Source: a virus (taxonomy: Duplodnaviria; Heunggongvirae; Uroviricota; Caudoviricetes). Taken from it: a DNA stretch of 40,078 nt. The notes under the pieces were generated by a model, which was not told the origin of the DNA, ran no database searches, and saw only the letters and a program-made list of their open reading frames with translations. This document shows, piece after piece, positions 4,851 to 33,886 of the stretch. How positions within the stretch are numbered: position 1 is the stretch's first letter; every line of letters begins with the position of its first letter. The stretch is from IMG/VR virus record IMGVR_UViG_2671181094_000008, positions 1 to 40,078 of that record. The stretch is one strand, 5' to 3'. Made by a program: the position numbers and the translations under genes.

Positions 4851-5932
4851 TGGTTTAATCCCGGGATTTGCTGATAGAAGGCACAGGGCTGGACGCTGAA
4901 GGCTTCCGGCGGTAGCAGGTACATTCTGGCGTGAGTGCCGTCGCTGTCTCTGATGTAGGTCACCTCAGCAATCAGCATTTCCGTATCCGGAAGTTGCATT
5001 GAGGGGATATTTACCGGGATCAGCGTGTTCGGCTCCCAGAGTTTTCCCGCTTTATCGCGCCAGGAATCAATCGTGACGCTCAATGGCTTTGAGCGGCCGT
5101 ATCGTCGGTTCATCTCCCAGTCGATGGCGCGCTGCGCCTGCTGGGATGCCATCAGCGTACTTTCAACGATAATGATCCGTTTCCGGTAGCGCATGCTTGC
5201 CGCCTCCGGATCACGCGCTGTCGCCAGCGTCACCGAGTCATAAGCTGTATCCGGTGAGAATCCTGCAATCGGAGAAATGCTCATCGATACGCCGACGTAA
5301 TCAGAAAAGCGGTCTGCCATCGAACGGCGGTAATAAGCCTGTTCGATATTTACCCCTTCAGCGATACCGCTGGACGCGCGCTTTGCGCCCACCCGGGTAA
5401 GAAATAAATTGCCGTCAGGCTGATCGTAATAGAGCAGAGCTGACCAGCGGGAGACCCGTTCAAGTATTTCCTGCGGCGACTCCCCCCAGTTGAGCGTGAA
5501 CTGGGGAACGCTGACTAAATCATCGATATCAGTAGAAACCGTAATGTCGTAATACGATGCAAGCCTGGATGCTATATCCAGCGCATTGCCGCCGTTGATA
5601 ACGTTGTTCGGCCATTCTGCCGAGCAATCGACAAGATCACAGCACTTATTGCGCCCCGTTGCCCTGACTTCATGGCGAGACCGGGAAAGTGATGGTGACC
5701 AGTCGTCTACATAGCCTGTTATAACCAGATCGCTGCCTAGTTTTACCTGGCAGGGCATCCCCTCCTTCACCAGCTGTTTCTGATCACTACCGGGAAAATA
5801 ATCCATCAGACCCAGATCAAAATCGGAGGGGAAACGCTCAATGCCGCGGGTCACCCGCACAGAATCCCACCCCTCAATAACTTTCCCGCCCACAGTCAGA
5901 GAGACGATATCCTGATCGTTATCCGTACTCAT
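4847..5932 (-). CDS. Baseplate hub protein (Mu P / P2 gpD late-control-D family)
   Basis: 361 aa, directly downstream of the DNA-circularisation gene. Confidence 0.6.
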   Translation of the reverse strand: MSTDNDQDIVSLTVGGKVIEGWDSVRVTRGIERFPSDFDLGLMDYFPGSDQKQLVKEGMPCQVKLGSDLVITGYVDDWSPSLSRSRHEVRATGRNKCCDLVDCSAEWPNNVINGGNALDIASRLASYYDITVSTDIDDLVSVPQFTLNWGESPQEILERVSRWSALLYYDQPDGNLFLTRVGAKRASSGIAEGVNIEQAYYRRSMADRFSDYVGVSMSISPIAGFSPDTAYDSVTLATARDPEAASMRYRKRIIIVESTLMASQQAQRAIDWEMNRRYGRSKPLSVTIDSWRDKAGKLWEPNTLIPVNIPSMQLPDTEMLIAEVTYIRDSDGTHARMYLLPPEAFSVQPCAFYQQIPGLNQ

Positions 5933-28797: not shown

Positions 28798-29652
28798 TCA
28801 GTCCCTCGCCCATGATGGGATTTCAGTCTGCCCGTAATCCTTCCCTGAGAAATTTTCGGCAACTCGCACCTGTTGACTTGGTTGAGGCTTGGCACCATTT
28901 GGCTCAAACAGGCCTTGCCAGCCATTGGCGATGCTGCGGTTGATAATTTCTTCGGGCGAGTAACCGTTCAGTCTGCAGCGGTCCAGCAGGTTGATAGCCT
29001 GGGTGACCGTCTGCTGAGACTTGATCGGCTTTTTCAGGTCGCGACGATATGCCACCCATGACGACCAGATTTCTGCAGAAAGCCAGTCAGGCAACTGAAC
29101 AGCTAACGCATCGAACGAAACCGCCCGGGGGGATTTAGGGGGGTTATTAATATTGTCTTTATTGTCTTTTGTATGTTTGTCTTTTGTGTTTACCTGATTC
29201 GGGTAATAGGCGTTACCTGATTCGGGTAAACTTTTCTTACCTGATTCGGGTAATGTTACCTTTTTCAGGTAAGGTTTTTTTTCTTTACCTTTTACGGGTA
29301 AAGATGACCATTCGCTGACCGTTTTATTAATCCCGATAACACGACCGGTTTGAGTTAATATCCCCCGCTTAACCAGGACGCTTTTTGCAGCTGAGCACTT
29401 ATGCGGGAGAATGCCGGTCAGCTCCGAGAGCTGCTCGTTACTGACCCAGTCAGATTTCTTGTTGAAGCCGTATGTTTTGCGCATGACAGCCATGAACACC
29501 AAAAGCTGATGCTGCGACAGACCCGCACGCATGACAGCTTCAAGGAGCTCATTGGCGATGCGCGTAAACCCATCGTCGAGATCTGCCACGCGCAGCTCCT
29601 GTAGTGCCACGACAGGCACAGGGAAATTGATTACCTCGGCAGTATTTGCCAT
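28798..29652 (-). CDS. Replication initiator, lambda O-like
   Basis: Position after cII, an internal iteron array with a K/D/N-rich linker in the reading frame, followed by the helicase-loader gene. Confidence 0.75.
   Translation of the reverse strand: MANTAEVINFPVPVVALQELRVADLDDGFTRIANELLEAVMRAGLSQHQLLVFMAVMRKTYGFNKKSDWVSNEQLSELTGILPHKCSAAKSVLVKRGILTQTGRVIGINKTVSEWSSLPVKGKEKKPYLKKVTLPESGKKSLPESGNAYYPNQVNTKDKHTKDNKDNINNPPKSPRAVSFDALAVQLPDWLSAEIWSSWVAYRRDLKKPIKSQQTVTQAINLLDRCRLNGYSPEEIINRSIANGWQGLFEPNGAKPQPSQQVRVAENFSGKDYGQTEIPSWARD
29144..29302. repeat. Replication origin: five iterons plus adjacent AT-rich tract inside the O-like gene
   Basis: Iterons TACCTGATTCGGGTAA at 29191..29206, 29214..29229, 29238..29253, with degenerate copies TACCTTTTTCAGGTAA (29257..29272) and TACCTTTTACGGGTAA (about 29287..29302); each is an internal palindrome TACC-N8-GGTA. 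AT-rich tract at 29144..29190. Confidence 0.75.
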
Positions 29653-29737
29653 AATTACTCCTGTGAATTGATCCAGTTAATTCGCGTAGAAAGCCGTTAG
29701 TGTTGCTGCACTGCGGCTTTCGCCTTTCTGTTCCCAC

Positions 29738-29959
29738 TCATGCTTCAAAATCACCTTTCTCTCCCGGCCTGTTAGAAATCAGGATGGCCAGCAGCAGCGA
29801 CATGTTCGGCAGCAGACTTTCCCGCCAGCGACTCACCGTCGACTTATTCACTCCGGCCACTTTGGCGATATTCGTGGTTCCCAGTTCAGCTATCTGGCTG
29901 TGTAACCAGCTTTCTATCCTGCGAGCCTCCACTTTGTTGCGTGTCGTTGAACTCTCCAT
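29738..29959 (-). CDS. CII-like transcriptional activator
   Basis: 73 aa, similar to lambda CII as I recall it (RIESWLHSQIAELGT...STVSRWRESLLP..MSLLLAIL); sits between cro and O. Confidence 0.65.
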   Translation of the reverse strand: MESSTTRNKVEARRIESWLHSQIAELGTTNIAKVAGVNKSTVSRWRESLLPNMSLLLAILISNRPGEKGDFEA

Positions 29960-29999
29960 TTGTGATACTTCCTCTGGTGTTGTTTGGAATGGCCGCTGG

Positions 30000-30227
30000 T
30001 TAGGCGGCCGGTGAATGCGCGCTCAGCAACTGAGCAAGGTCAGGCCTGATCTCTGCCGCCTTAATCTTGCCGTTGGTCGCAGACACGATTTTCATTACAT
30101 AGCGAGCGTCAATTCCGCCGCCATGCAGCCAGCGCCAAACTGTCGGCTGCGCTACGCCACACAGATCGGCCAATTTTTTCTGACTGCCAGCGATATCAAT
30201 TGCCTTCTGGATGGTTTTGTTCGTCAT
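30000..30227 (-). CDS. Cro-like HTH repressor
   Basis: Start MTNKTIQKAID preceded by AGGAA; first gene of the rightward operon, divergent from cI. Confidence 0.6.
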   Translation of the reverse strand: MTNKTIQKAIDIAGSQKKLADLCGVAQPTVWRWLHGGGIDARYVMKIVSATNGKIKAAEIRPDLAQLLSAHSPAA

Positions 30228-30259: not shown

Positions 30260-30288
30260 ATAATAGCAATGCGTATTGGTTTTAGCAA
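30260..30288 (-). promoter_or_regulatory. PR-like early promoter with embedded operator
   Basis: Minus strand TTGCTA, 17-nt spacer, TATTAT; operator palindrome CAATGCGTATTG (30267..30278) in the spacer. Confidence 0.55.
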
Positions 30289-30302
30289 TAGCAAAACGTG
30301 TT

Positions 30303-30330
30303 TTGACCAGTAATACGCAAGCGTATAAAT
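30303..30330 (+). promoter_or_regulatory. PRM-like promoter for cI with overlapping operator
   Basis: TTGACC, 15-16-nt spacer, TATAAA(T); near-palindrome ATACGCAAGCGTAT (30313..30326) in the spacer; transcript would be almost leaderless. Confidence 0.45.
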
Positions 30331-30338
30331 TTGAGATT

Positions 30339-31037
30339 ATGAAAAAAGAAACTCTTGCAGATCGTTTAAACGAGGCCATGGCTTCGGCTGGAATGTCACA
30401 AGGGGCGCTTGCGAAGGCCTCAGGTATTGCTCAGCCAACCATTTGGCGCCTGGTGAGTGGAAACGCCAGGGGTTCAACAAAAATTGTCGAGATAGCTAAT
30501 GCTTTGGGCGTCAGGTCTGAATGGTTATCAACCGGAAATGGACCGATGCGCGATGACGGCCAGCTCCCTCGCGCTGCCCAGGTTAAAAGCCAGGATACTG
30601 ATGCATTCAGGATTGATGTGCTGGACCTTATGGTTAGTGCCGGGCCGGGCATCGTGAACCAGGAGTTCGTCGAGATTCTCCGTTCTGTTGAGTATGAGCC
30701 AGCTGAAGCCCGGCACATGTTCGATGGGCGTAAGGCTGAGAACATCCGGATCATCAACGTCCGGGGCGACAGCATGTCTGGGACGATTGAGCCGGGTGAT
30801 CTGCTGTTCGTCGACATCAGCGTTAAGAGCTTCGACGGCGACGGGATATACGCCTTCCTGTACGACGACACTGCTCACGTCAAGCGCCTGCAGAAGATGA
30901 AGGATAAGCTGCTGGTTATCTCAGATAACAAGAGCTATGCCCCTTGGGAACCGATCGAGAAAGATGAGATGAATCGGGTGTTCGTGTTCGGCAAGGTGAT
31001 CGGCAGCATGCCGCAGACGTACAGGAAGCATGGGTAA
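30339..31037 (+). CDS. CI-like repressor (HTH plus S24 LexA-like autopeptidase domain)
   Basis: N-terminal HTH, C-terminal GDSMSG (Ser nucleophile) and VKRL (Lys); divergent from cro. Start MKKETLADRL chosen over the upstream ATG to leave room for the operators. Confidence 0.85.
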   Translation: MKKETLADRLNEAMASAGMSQGALAKASGIAQPTIWRLVSGNARGSTKIVEIANALGVRSEWLSTGNGPMRDDGQLPRAAQVKSQDTDAFRIDVLDLMVSAGPGIVNQEFVEILRSVEYEPAEARHMFDGRKAENIRIINVRGDSMSGTIEPGDLLFVDISVKSFDGDGIYAFLYDDTAHVKRLQKMKDKLLVISDNKSYAPWEPIEKDEMNRVFVFGKVIGSMPQTYRKHG

Positions 31038-31059
31038 AGCCTTAGCACACAGAGGAAGC

Positions 31060-31179
31060 ATGTCTGATCTGATTATCCCAATACTCATTACTTTGCTGAT
31101 TATCGGGCTGGTTGGGATCGTGCTCAGGCTAGATAAGATTTTCTTCAAGCGAAGGGATGAGCGGGATGACTTTGAATAA
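31060..31179 (+). CDS. Small hydrophobic membrane peptide (39 aa), absent from the ORF track
   Basis: MSDLIIPILITLLIIGLVGIVLRLDKIFFKRRDERDDFE: one TM helix and charged tail; GAGG 4 nt upstream of the ATG; 22 nt downstream of the cI stop. Confidence 0.4.
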   Translation: MSDLIIPILITLLIIGLVGIVLRLDKIFFKRRDERDDFE

Positions 31180-31304
31180 GCCAGACCGGTAGTTCGATGT
31201 GTTTTTGGTAATGCCGAAGACGTACAGGAAGCATGGATAGCCAGCCAGTGGCCTGACAAGGTGTTTGGGTGATGAGAAGATAGCAATAACTTAGAGGCTT
31301 AAAT

Positions 31305-32069
31305 GTGATCAGAATAGGAAGGTTACTACCTGGCGGCATTGCAATTGACGAAGGGCAACATCACCCGATAAAGGGCGTTGCTCTTTTGATAAAAGAAAAT
31401 AGCGAACCAGAAGAGATTGTTGTTTTTGCAAAAGAAATATCTTCTAGGAGCATTTCTATAGAAATAACCTGCGCAGCCTTGGGAAGAGCTCTATCCCTGC
31501 CTATACCCGAGCCAGTACTACTGTTTGACAGCTCAAACAAAGCATTTTTTGGTAGTGTTGATGCTACCTATCCGAGTTTCATGAAGTATGTTTCTAACTC
31601 TTCAGATCAGGCCGTTTCTGATGCTTTGGCATCATGGCCGTTATTGAAAAAAGCTAGCTATTTTGATGAGTGGATTGCGATGGATGACCGTCACAACGGA
31701 AATTTGCTTTTCAATGGTGATGGTTTCTTCCTGATAGACCATGAATCGGCAATTCCCCAAGGTCTTGCCCCTGACCTTTTCGGGATAGATTATTACTCCA
31801 ATCAATTGCTGCAGGTAGCAACTTACATACTCGATAGAAGTAATGATATAGCCGTTCAGATGATGGCAAATGAGGCGAGAGCTTGGACCATGTCTTGCAA
31901 GAGTAACACCCTAACGCTATTAGATGGAGAGATATCCGAAACAGTTCAAGGTAAAGAGAAAAATCAAATAATGTCTTTCCTTTCATCTAGAATTGAGTTA
32001 CTAGGAGACATTCTTTATGATCAAATCAAGCCCCAACAAACACAGATGATATACGATGCTAAATCTTGA
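31305..32069 (+). CDS. HipA / PI3-4-kinase-like fold protein
   Basis: GTG start with AGAGG 8 nt upstream; catalytic-loop-like DRHNGNLLF and downstream FFLIDHES; AT-rich; co-oriented downstream of cI. Confidence 0.5.
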   Translation: MIRIGRLLPGGIAIDEGQHHPIKGVALLIKENSEPEEIVVFAKEISSRSISIEITCAALGRALSLPIPEPVLLFDSSNKAFFGSVDATYPSFMKYVSNSSDQAVSDALASWPLLKKASYFDEWIAMDDRHNGNLLFNGDGFFLIDHESAIPQGLAPDLFGIDYYSNQLLQVATYILDRSNDIAVQMMANEARAWTMSCKSNTLTLLDGEISETVQGKEKNQIMSFLSSRIELLGDILYDQIKPQQTQMIYDAKS

Positions 32070-32937
32070 TCAGCTTCTTAAGTCAGCTCCTGCTATGCCT
32101 GCAACATCAGGGCGCTGGGCATCTGTTTATCTTGAACCAATGATCGGCTCAGGAGAGCGGCTCACGGTAGCAGTTGCCACGATAACATCATCTGGTGAAA
32201 TTTTAGTTAAGCCGGCAATCAGAAAAGAAGTTATAGAAGCTATGTATGGCTTCAAAGCACCAGCATTTATCAATGTGGTTGATCTGATTTTGTCGAGTTT
32301 GAAGTTGCATCTGGCTGCTAAGGGGGATTTCGTATCATGGCATCCTCCAGTTACAGGCGTCACTATAAGCGCCGTAAGGAATGCTGCGTCATCAAGCCCT
32401 GTTGGCATACTCCGCCAAGCGGTATCATTGTCATCGAGTTTGTCATCACTCCTTGAGGCTGAAGAAGATTCCGATGGGTTGCCAGCTAAGCAATCAAGAA
32501 CTAAAGACAGGTGGCCAATTCAAATCTTTGATGCGGTTATCAGCGCTGACGGACGCAGGGATATTTTTTTCAATAGAAGCTTCACCTTTAGTGATGGACA
32601 CAGACCGGCTAAAATTTTCTATCTAAGCGATCATGCAGCTATCAACACCGGAAAACTGTTACCCCACAACTTGAATGAGCAGGTTAAGGATGGAAAAGCA
32701 AAAATATCTGACTTATCAATGATAAAAAGGCAAGGCGATATTTTTCCAAGAGAAACTCATCAAATGATTATCTACAAACCGGAAGATGATAGCCCTGCAT
32801 ACAATGATAGGCACATAGCATCAATAAATAGTGCGTACCTTTCTTTACAGGACTTGGCTAACACCTACGATGTATCAATCACTTCTGTAAGCACTGCCGA
32901 GCATGCAGCAAGGTTAATATTGCAAACTGCAGCATAA
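32056..32937 (+). CDS. Hypothetical protein, translationally coupled partner of the kinase-like gene
   Basis: 293 aa; start overlaps the upstream gene by 14 nt; no motif I recognise; AT-rich. Confidence 0.5.
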   Translation: MLNLDQLLKSAPAMPATSGRWASVYLEPMIGSGERLTVAVATITSSGEILVKPAIRKEVIEAMYGFKAPAFINVVDLILSSLKLHLAAKGDFVSWHPPVTGVTISAVRNAASSSPVGILRQAVSLSSSLSSLLEAEEDSDGLPAKQSRTKDRWPIQIFDAVISADGRRDIFFNRSFTFSDGHRPAKIFYLSDHAAINTGKLLPHNLNEQVKDGKAKISDLSMIKRQGDIFPRETHQMIIYKPEDDSPAYNDRHIASINSAYLSLQDLANTYDVSITSVSTAEHAARLILQTAA

Positions 32938-32945
32938 CTTTTGAT

Positions 32946-32970
32946 CCGGCCACCGCGCCGGGTTTTTACT
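32946..32970 (+). terminator. Rho-independent terminator ending the cI-cassette operon
   Basis: CCGGC-loop-GCCGG hairpin followed by GTTTTTAC immediately after the cassette stop. Confidence 0.5.
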
Positions 32971-32973
32971 GCC

Positions 32974-33177
32974 CTACTCTTCCCTCAGCATCAGCACGTC
33001 CAGCGCCAACTCCACAGCCAGATCGACCTGGTCTTCCTGCCACAACACCTGAATCATCTCTATCAGCGCCTCTCTTGATGGCTCGCGCCTCTCAACCAGC
33101 AGCTGCATAACCGCTATCCCGATGACCTGCGCAATCTGCGGGTGCATCTCTGCGAAAAACTCATCCTCATTCGACAT
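32974..33177 (-). CDS. Small acidic hypothetical protein, convergent with the cI operon
   Basis: Start MSNEDEFFAEMHPQ chosen; gene begins at the edge of the OL-like operator region. Confidence 0.4.
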   Translation of the reverse strand: MSNEDEFFAEMHPQIAQVIGIAVMQLLVERREPSREALIEMIQVLWQEDQVDLAVELALDVLMLREE

Positions 33178-33289
33178 GGCGCTACCCTTTTTGGCGTTTT
33201 TTTGAGCATAACAGCACAATAGGAAAAAATAAATTCATTTAGCTATCAATGATTTAATAGCAATAGCTATCAAATAATAACAATACGTA

Positions 33290-33318
33290 TTGCTATGGTT
33301 AATACTCATTGCTATTAT
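33290..33318 (+). promoter_or_regulatory. pL-like early-left promoter with OL-type operators
   Basis: TTGCTA, 17-nt spacer, TATTAT (same architecture as PR); perfect palindrome CAATACGTATTG at 33281..33292 overlapping the -35, plus TAGCAATAGC-type repeats upstream. Confidence 0.55.
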
Positions 33319-33397
33319 CATCTCATCCAAACAACACCGGCAACGCCGGGGTGAAGTCAAAACGTCCCGTTAGCCGCGATAAGGCAAAGGTGAAGAG

Positions 33398-33505
33398 ATG
33401 ATCCGCGAAGAAGACAAGCCTGCATGGCGTAATTTTTGGTTAAAGGTCGTTCCGTTTTTGGTTGCTGTTCTCGCAGTTAGCTATCCGTGCTGGGGTGGCA
33501 AATGA
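33398..33505 (+). CDS. Small membrane peptide (35 aa), first gene after pL
   Basis: MIREEDKPAWRNFWLKVVPFLVAVLAVSYPCWGGK; AGGTGA 6 nt upstream; ATGA overlap with the next ORF; not in the ORF track. Confidence 0.35.
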   Translation: MIREEDKPAWRNFWLKVVPFLVAVLAVSYPCWGGK

Positions 33506-33612
33506 GCAAACAAGGCATTCGTTCACTGATTTACTGCCTGCTGATCTGCGGCGTTATCTGGTCGGCTGTTGTTATCAAAATTCTGCACGTTACGGGGGTG
33601 TTCAATGGCTAA
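33502..33612 (+). CDS. Small membrane peptide (36 aa)
   Basis: MSKQGIRSLIYCLLICGVIWSAVVIKILHVTGVFNG; overlaps both neighbours; not in the ORF track. Confidence 0.35.
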   Translation: MSKQGIRSLIYCLLICGVIWSAVVIKILHVTGVFNG

Positions 33613-33799
33613 CTCAATTCCTAACAGCGGACGCGCCGTGATGATGCGTAACGCTAAAACTGGCGCCACCTGGAAGGTTTCACGTGACTACCTGAAAGAA
33701 ACCTTCTGGTTCGAGCCACAGGGCAACCTGCGCCACATTCGCAAAGCATTTGAGGCACGCGACCTGCTGCCGAATCTGGTTCCAGCCGGGACGCATTAA
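33605..33799 (+). CDS. Hypothetical protein (64 aa)
   Basis: Start MANSIPNSGRAV with a G-rich Shine-Dalgarno upstream; third of three overlapping small genes. Confidence 0.4.
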   Translation: MANSIPNSGRAVMMRNAKTGATWKVSRDYLKETFWFEPQGNLRHIRKAFEARDLLPNLVPAGTH

Positions 33800-33886
33800 C
33801 CGCGCATATCAGCGCACGAATTTAACTGAGCTATCAGGCAGCCAATACGGTGCCGGGATTCTTACAACCAAATTTCAGGGGAAACC

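Follow-up and report, generated by a model that had tools for sequence, protein, structure and literature searches.

The small gene at positions 32974–33177 on the minus strand of IMG/VR virus record IMGVR_UViG_2671181094_000008, a 40,078-nucleotide stretch of DNA that we analysed whole and refer to as the window, lies in the immunity region of a lambdoid prophage that is reversed relative to the lambda map. It starts at an ATG at 33177, preceded by 7 nt by the Shine-Dalgarno sequence AAGGG (33185–33189, minus strand, read from the sequence), and stops at TAG 32974–32976. The product, MSNEDEFFAEMHPQIAQVIGIAVMQLLVERREPSREALIEMIQVLWQEDQVDLAVELALDVLMLREE, is a cytoplasmic protein of 67 residues (15 D+E against 4 K+R, pI 4.1, net charge −11) that belongs to phrog_3946 and has a predicted three-helix fold resembling that of YcgZ, YmgA and AriR; its acidity is common to most members of the phrog_3946-like family. 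Both the ATG and the Shine-Dalgarno site, the latter as a purine-rich GGG or GAGG, are kept in all aligned loci. An alternative 81-residue frame from TTG 33219 was dropped as unsupported, because coding conservation begins at the ATG, to which the Shine-Dalgarno sequence also points.

The gene runs convergent with cI (30339–31037, plus strand) and with the two open reading frames (ORFs) of the cassette that follows cI (31305–32069 and 32056–32937, plus strand). Only 6 nt separate its stop codon from the T-run in the cassette terminator, and its start is 74 bp away from the nearest clear operator of the left operator region, OL. In the immunity region of phage lambda the stretch from the end of the cI operon to OL is empty. 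The original prediction for this DNA described a 67-residue acidic ORF on the opposite strand, directly past the cassette terminator, abutting OL and additional to lambda, and this description holds well: the operator cluster is real, 'abutting' is fair for a start 74 bp away, and the gene, transcribed away from the left promoter PL, has no counterpart at that place on the lambda map.

Conservation and genomic setting of the small gene

Sequence comparison shows that the ORF is a real gene. The small protein matches the phrog_3946 profile over its entire length (E 2.1e-39, residues 1–67 on positions 1–67 of 67), and a large protein collection holds 528 clusters of homologues at 90% identity, all of them 'hypothetical' and mostly from Klebsiella, with full-length relatives extending down to ~40% identity. 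An exhaustive phmmer search over 1.8 billion representatives gave 48 matches only, many of them fragments, and the phrog_3946-like family is therefore narrow and enterobacterial; two long phmmer matches, P0155 (a 321-residue repeat protein) and P0160 (1,828 residues), look spurious and were rejected. The amino-acid sequence is under strong purifying selection, with a dN/dS of 0.11 over 1,986 pairwise comparisons of 64 distinct nucleotide versions and variable sites distributed 33/18/57 by codon position, the third being dominant. Conservation in related prophages, which the original prediction named as one of the points on which the ORF could fail, is seen at 91–99% identity over the 84 related loci of our gene-cluster map, and the homology and structure searches proposed with it gave the full-length phrog_3946 match and, in the model described below, a fold like that of 2OXL. 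Nonsense mutations occur in 3 of ~83 loci (L044, L075 and L068, gene at 5001–5201; codons 6, 17 and 46), the occasional decay to be expected of prophages.

The small gene is very common in Klebsiella and present in 40 of 5,426 complete E. coli genomes. It is unannotated in the reference phages epsilon34, ST104 and g341c, and likewise in the epsilon34 genome paper. Literature searches for the gene, for STMMW_03522 (which occupies its place in the Salmonella prophage BTP1, see below) and for DUF2767 returned nothing, and a PDB sequence search with the small protein gave chance-level matches only. The gene is known so far only as a hypothetical protein or as a phrog without assigned function; its conserved position in the immunity region appears to be previously undescribed, and its product a new phage-borne form of small regulatory protein.

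The position of the gene is highly regular. In Klebsiella RAH1 and Salmonella SPN9CC, S107 and ST104 it is flanked by the N/PL side on one hand and the cI operon on the other, with both of them on the opposite strand, and the placement is identical in 80 IMG/VR viral contigs and in P0157, a 40%-identical relative. Across the 84 loci the first convergent neighbour of the gene comes from 35 different families, and CI from two (56 and 21 loci). Alignment of the 3′ flanks reveals conservation that spans the stop codon and a hairpin, CCCGGCGCGGTGGCCGGG, and ends at the last base of this hairpin, which follows the stop codon in nearly all loci. In the window the hairpin is that of the intrinsic cI-cassette terminator (32943–32967, plus strand; hairpin 32943–32964, T5 32963–32967, fold −13.4 kcal/mol), standing after the small-gene stop on the other strand and forming the right-hand edge of the variable cassette. 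In the P0157 loci (L086–L088) there is no cassette and just 29 nt lie between the ends of the small gene and cI; the hairpin of L086 is common to cI and the small gene and has T-runs on both sides, forming a bidirectional terminator there.

The order of the module is the PL operon, transcribed outward from PL/OL, followed by the promoter of the small gene, the small gene itself and the terminator, upon which the variable cassette and cI converge from the other side. Lysogens express mosaic accessory genes from the interval between cI and N, a known hotspot for them (PMC7067206, PMC8585504), and the small gene is the fixed border of this hotspot rather than the partner of any particular cassette. 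It is a constant part of the immunity region in many Klebsiella, Salmonella and some E. coli lambdoid or P22-like prophages. Like lambda rexAB, BTP1 bstA and other morons downstream of cI, it lies in the cI-to-N interval; unlike them it is an invariant flank, on the opposite strand, with a promoter of its own and not co-transcribed with cI. In L030, L050, L069 and L079 a second gene on the same strand (58 residues, MRPPITKEEVELLMQDMEMLAEQHLVG...) follows ~30 nt past the stop codon with its own Shine-Dalgarno sequence, and the hairpin is replaced.

The remaining genes of the region follow the lambdoid plan. The replication gene, cII and cro (28798–30227, minus strand) are separated from cI by OR (~30260–30330, with operator half-sites clustering at 30263–30282), and CI carries a helix-turn-helix and a Peptidase_S24 domain. 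A 49-residue ORF with one predicted membrane helix (31030–31179, plus strand) overlaps the last codons of cI; it is kept directly after cI in many loci, whichever cassette follows ('cluster 18'), and seems to encode a constant small membrane protein that is transcribed together with the repressor. The first cassette ORF (31305–32069) encodes a candidate HipA_2-like kinase (Pfam E 1e-5, below cut-off, with a weak match to PADLOC PDC-M66A) and the second (32056–32937), which overlaps it by 14 nt, a 293-residue phrog_21150 protein. This pair recurs in 6 loci, and the cassette of the window is probably a defence or abortive-infection-type module.

Promoter, operators and expression

An alignment of the 260 nt before the small gene, with promoter elements counted over 89 loci, resolves the upstream region into three parts. 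The most distant is the conserved PL leader, whose gene-strand end reads ...GGATGAG. Next comes an immunity-specific segment of ~95 bp that contains PL and the operators and is bracketed by conserved blocks; Klebsiella has at least four unrelated versions of it, and Salmonella has others. The third part is a block of ~65 nt that reaches to the ATG and is kept in all loci across operator types (gene strand, ATTTATTTTT(G)TAAAG.GTGCTG(G/T)TA(A/T)GCTCAAAAAAAC..CA..AGGG....ATG). Within this block lies a putative extended −10 element, TGTTATGCT (33205–33213, minus strand; TG at 33213–33212, hexamer TATGCT at 33210–33205), and the corresponding pattern TGnnAnnnT, in which A2 and T6 of the hexamer are kept, is found 26–31 nt before the start codon in 87 of the 89 loci, including those of Salmonella and the 40%-identity relative. 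An A/T block, ATTTATTTTTT (33224–33234, minus strand; 88 of 89 loci), holds a −35-like TTTATT (33233–33228) at a spacing of 17 nt and marks where the conserved promoter module gives way to the immunity-specific OL segment, the sequence upstream of it differing by immunity type. Transcription would start near 33198. The retention of the ~65-nt block across at least four operator types, with its extended −10 in nearly every locus, suggests that the small gene has its own promoter and does not borrow PL or OL; the conserved hairpin after its stop codon would be its own terminator.

Other candidate elements upstream of the gene were rejected. The minus-strand promoter-like sequence TTAACC-17-TATTAT (33302–33274) falls within the immunity-specific segment and is not shared between types, and therefore does not qualify as the main promoter; an upstream TTGATA-18-TATAAA is good in BTP1 and absent from the Klebsiella versions; and a supposed LexA box reads CTGT-N8-AAAA, not ACAG. 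In L058 the promoter block is replaced by unrelated sequence beside a 530-residue ORF, probably through insertion of a mobile element.

The operators themselves form a cluster of repeats and inverted repeats, OL1 (33296–33315), OL2 (33277–33296) and OL3 (33251–33270), with the consensus ATAGCAATAC|GTATTGCTAT, a motif that also occurs in OR. OL2 is a 20-bp near-palindrome, ATAACAATACGTATTGCTAT. The exact half-site ATAGCAAT is present 7 times in the window, with 3 copies in the 60-bp OL stretch and 1 in OR. Since 4 of the 7 copies account for OL and OR, a lone exact copy at 31280–31287, between the 49-residue ORF and the kinase-like ORF, is probably due to chance. PL, detected by promoter scan as TTGCTA-17-TATTAT (33290–33318, plus strand), is divergent from the small gene, has the same design as PR at OR and drives the recombination and early genes.

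Expression at this position can be judged indirectly from the Salmonella prophage BTP1, whose CI is 83% identical to that of the window with a near-identical helix-turn-helix, suggesting that the two share the same or a closely related immunity type. The BTP1 slot agrees with that of the window in its promoter block, first codons, terminator hairpin and orientation between N/PL and the cI operon (there cI-bstA), but the protein encoded there (STMMW_03522, or BTP1_037) is different: it matches DUF2767 (E 4.5e-34) and phrog_5948, and phrog_3946 only at E 0.13. At 69 residues it is similar in size to the 67-residue protein of the window, whereas its charge is −2.4 rather than −11; profile comparison finds weak similarity between the two, in the same register (P 0.0014). 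The BTP1 gene (L085 2570–2779) is annotated as 56 residues from an internal ATG, a frame that appears too short, because a 69-residue frame starting at GTG 2570 has the conserved Shine-Dalgarno sequence and gives a full-length match to DUF2767 and phrog_5948 (1–69). In published RNA-seq data STMMW_03522 reaches 17–53 transcripts per million (TPM) in all 17 lysogen conditions (Owen et al. 2020, Table S5, PMC7067206); BTP1 N has 3.6–28 TPM and most lytic genes 1–10 (Table S5, PMC7067206), and in intracellular-type conditions STMMW_03522 has 44–53 TPM against 5–10 for N (PMC7067206). The slot is transcribed in BTP1 lysogens, that is, with CI present, and by analogy the small gene would be expressed in Klebsiella lysogens as well.

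Proximity to OL raises the alternative that the small gene is a component of the CI/Cro-controlled switch, with an OL-governed promoter that either is repressed in the lysogen and fires together with PL on induction or, like PRM, is activated by CI, and with a product that, for example, works as an anti-repressor, influences CI cleavage or assists the early genes. We consider this unlikely, though the region offers it some footing. The small gene lies 74 bp from OL3 and is constant in the immunity region even where no cassette is present; the rejected promoter-like site at 33302–33274, which has a TG, straddles OL2; and a candidate weak fourth operator-like site, ATAGCTAAATGAATTTATTT on the gene strand (33227–33246), overlaps the −35-like element and is centred near −38 of the putative start. 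This site agrees with the operator consensus at 12 of 20 positions (by eye), equal to OL3, and is kept in type-A loci and in BTP1; in the immunity type of the window, CI or Cro may therefore modulate the promoter. However, loci of at least four operator types share one promoter module, and the distance to the closest clear operator varies, its centre falling at ~−62 in type A, to which the window belongs, and at ~−56 in type C; a fixed repressor-promoter geometry is therefore unlikely. Nor does the small-gene sequence co-vary with CI type or repressor specificity, being 91–99% identical over two CI families and several operator types. The predicted fold lacks a helix-turn-helix or any further DNA-binding element, the protein has a net charge of −11, and the BTP1 slot gene is transcribed in lysogens under all conditions.

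On the far side of PL, the conserved leader contains a hairpin, CCGGCAACGCCGG (33337–33349), after which the opposite strand has a T-rich run, a terminator-like site facing OL. The PL operon of the window (33330–33800, plus strand) opens with a 35-residue hydrophobic ORF (33398–33505) and a hydrophobic ORF of ~36 residues from 33504, followed by a 64-residue phrog_3722 protein; no N antiterminator is recognisable in it, whereas the related Salmonella and P0157 loci have N. Plus-strand ORFs called between PL and the small gene (clusters 23, 27, 44, 50, 82 and 98), together with cluster 1 (48 or 95 residues), were rejected as junk frames over the PL leader.

Predicted fold and relation to YcgZ, YmgA and AriR

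An AlphaFold2 model of the small protein, built from a 20-sequence alignment, consists of three helices (residues 3–28, 35–45 and 53–63; pLDDT 84, pTM 0.69) and reproduces the three-helix fold of the solved YmgB structure 2OXL. Foldseek ranked this entry first, so that the closest structural counterpart of the model belongs to the signalling connectors and not to the known DNA mimics; a search of the BFVD viral structure library gave no match better than E 1.5.

At the level of sequence the relationship is more distant. Neither the window protein nor 20 family members matched the Pfam family PF10798 (YmgB/AriR) at E values up to 10, whereas the positive controls YcgZ (24.9 bits) and AriR (90.3 bits) both pass. 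Profile-profile comparison with hhalign gave P 0.053 against the AriR family alone, P 0.0056 against YmgA, P 0.0012 against the YcgZ family and P 2.1e-4 against a combined YcgZ+AriR+YmgA profile (39 columns, score 26.1, probability 46%). As controls, reversed alignments scored 15–16, and 200 column shuffles reached a maximum of 16.6 with a mean of 9.7 (s.d. 2.0); for scale, YcgZ against AriR, both of them PF10798 members, gives P 1.6e-7. The register was the same in every pairwise profile test, with PQIAQVIGIAVMQLLVERREPSREALIEM of the window protein pairing with PTQQETLGEIVTEILKDGRNLSRKSLCAK of YcgZ, and P13 and G20 aligning with YcgZ P24 and G31. The model suggests that the small protein has the YcgZ/YmgA/AriR fold, and it is probably a distant relative of these proteins; it is not a demonstrable member of PF10798.

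With AriR (YmgB of E. coli K-12; 2OXL, PF10798) the small protein shares the character of a small acidic cytoplasmic three-helix protein and the motif (V/I)(L/I)GxAVxxL...(S/N)(R/K)xx(I/L) in the same register. The two differ in that identity is only ~12–15%, that the ~25-residue N-terminal extension of AriR is absent from the phage protein, and that AriR is encoded in the BluR-controlled ycgZ-ymgABC operon, whereas the phage gene has a promoter of its own inside a prophage immunity region. YcgZ and YmgA are the best sequence-level relatives found, with a conserved P-x6-G and an LSR(K/E)S-type motif, although the similarity stays under the family thresholds, the phage protein is far more strongly acidic, and genomic setting and regulation are different. 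The window gene is monocistronic in a prophage and not, as ycgZ-ymgA-ariR-ymgC, part of a multi-paralogue chromosomal operon near icd.

A chromosomal homologue, from an enterobacterium, does stand in such an operon. P0158 (65 residues, 43% identical to the small protein; L089 4001–5045) heads an operon of small proteins beside a GGDEF gene near icd, in which it is followed by an 89-residue protein with a signal-peptide-like N-terminus and then by a DUF2767 protein, an arrangement that recalls ycgZ-ymgA-ariR-ymgC next to e14 and icd in E. coli K-12. The neighbourhood of the E. coli ycgZ-ymgA-ariR locus is itself prophage-rich (PMC3509220). The phrog_3946 and DUF2767 types alternate in the phage slot and adjoin in the chromosome, which fits diverged paralogues. 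At the sequence level, the window protein does not match DUF2767 (PF10965), P0158 scores E 0.032 (14.7 bits; cut-off 20.7), and hhalign of DUF2767/BTP1 against YcgZ gives P 0.26 only, so that a link between DUF2767 and PF10798 runs through the intermediate phrog_3946 family and through gene context. PF10798, DUF2767 and phrog_3946 may tentatively be regarded as connected. Searched against the PHROGs, AriR gave weak matches to phrog_3975 (E 0.039, a 68-residue profile) and phrog_31514 (E 0.043), and there may be more phage-borne relatives of the AriR fold.

Possible function of the small protein

While the comparative anatomy of the locus is clear, the function of its product has to be judged from sequence and from the behaviour of its putative relatives. 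On this basis we would give roughly even chances to the reading that the small gene is an independently transcribed immunity-region gene whose product is an acidic, YcgZ/YmgA/AriR-like modulator of the connector type. The gene would be transcribed from its own sigma-70 extended −10 promoter, including in the lysogen, and the protein, like its cellular relatives, would bind and modulate a protein partner, not DNA. This proposal draws on the lack of a DNA-binding fold, the charge of −11, the apparently autonomous promoter and lysogenic expression in the case of BTP1. The result would be a change in host physiology or surface properties to the benefit of the prophage, and the protein would be neither antitoxin nor immunity factor for the adjoining cassette.

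AriR has two known partners, SpoT and the Rcs phosphorelay; the latter governs capsule, biofilm and envelope-stress output. YmgB binds SpoT directly and separately activates the Rcs phosphorelay, leading to a mucoid, capsule-producing phenotype (PMC10704370); its effect on Rcs is independent of RcsF and is reported to run via the cytoplasmic portion of RcsC (PMC11709261). Its action on Rcs and capsule is also described in PMC3509220. More generally, the YcgZ/YmgA/AriR relatives are connectors that work through contacts with other proteins. That the phage protein might modulate Rcs and capsule in Klebsiella is an attractive idea, but speculation by analogy.

Several points weigh against the connector-type reading. 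The transcription start is derived from sequence for every member of the family, and with the operator-like site at 33227–33246 lying over the −35-like element the promoter may lack autonomy. The expression seen in BTP1 is that of a different, distantly related protein behind a somewhat different −10 region, in a prophage whose high spontaneous induction inflates lytic-gene reads. As for the protein, scans with Pfam, NCBIfam and PADLOC matched no model, the fold match is that of a predicted model of a small helical protein, and the profile-profile probability is only 46%. AriR R74, which is required for SpoT binding (PMC10704370), aligns with E55 of the small protein, in a weak alignment of the C-terminal helix. 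Finally, the protein may have a role inside the phage's own switch, acting for example on CI, Cro or RecA.

In Klebsiella, phages mainly use the capsule as their receptor. A joint reading, which we regard as distinctly unlikely in its entirety, would make the small protein a connector mimic or antagonist, made in the lysogen from a promoter next to OL, possibly stimulated by CI at the fourth operator as OR2-bound CI stimulates PRM, and reprogramming Rcs together with capsule and envelope properties, while the module as a whole would serve as a recombination anchor for cassette swaps. If true, a large share of lambdoid prophages would carry a built-in superinfection-control or fitness device.

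The strong acidity of the protein also brings to mind the anti-defence proteins, of which Ocr and ArdA act by DNA mimicry and Ral by a different route. We find it improbable that the small protein is likewise an anti-defence protein or DNA mimic blocking a host restriction or defence factor. A charge of −11 in 67 residues, with most family members acidic too, would suit such a role, as would the location beside the early left operon, the site of the ral and abc genes in P22-like phages; yet the small gene is transcribed away from this operon and not within it, the BTP1 slot protein has a charge of only −2.4, the best structural match is a signalling connector, PADLOC and anti-defence families gave no match, and the 43%-identical homologue P0158 is encoded by a normal gene of the chromosome, within an operon of small proteins.

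The constant bracketing of the variable region by the module would also agree with a mainly cis-acting role, in which convergent transcription and the hairpin insulate PL/OL from read-through of the cI operon, or antisense transcription damps the cassette, with coding being secondary. In the window no U-run follows the hairpin on the gene strand (AUCAAAAG), and antisense read-through into the 3′ end of the cassette is conceivable. A dN/dS of 0.11 with third-position variation dominant, the kept ATG and Shine-Dalgarno site, the confident predicted fold and the existence of a chromosomal homologue outside such an arrangement make it very improbable, however, that the coding sequence is incidental.

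Only one of the alternatives is clearly refuted, namely that the small protein is an antitoxin, self-immunity factor or regulatory partner of the cassette downstream of cI: the gene does adjoin the cassette, share its terminator and face a first ORF that is weakly HipA_2-like (E 1e-5, below cut-off) with a weak PADLOC candidate match, but the cassette takes 35 unrelated forms in 84 loci and is absent in the P0157 loci L086–L088, while the small gene stays constant at 91–99% identity and conservation ends exactly at the hairpin. The original prediction had guessed at an operator-controlled regulator or an antitoxin-like partner of the cassette; a regulator-type small protein, whether or not under operator control, is now the most likely of these, and the antitoxin-like partner falls away.

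A whole lineage of lambdoid and P22-like prophages of Klebsiella, Salmonella and E. coli therefore carries a conserved and, it would seem, separately promoted gene where lambda has nothing, and in every record examined this gene is unannotated or 'hypothetical'. The link to YcgZ, YmgA and AriR provides a concrete hypothesis for its product, namely modulation of Rcs, capsule, stress signalling or another protein partner. The gene is found in thousands of clinical Klebsiella genomes, and capsule regulation matters for both virulence and phage susceptibility. Irrespective of the function of its product, the small gene with its hairpin marks the fixed right-hand border of the hotspot downstream of cI, and may be used to locate new defence systems.

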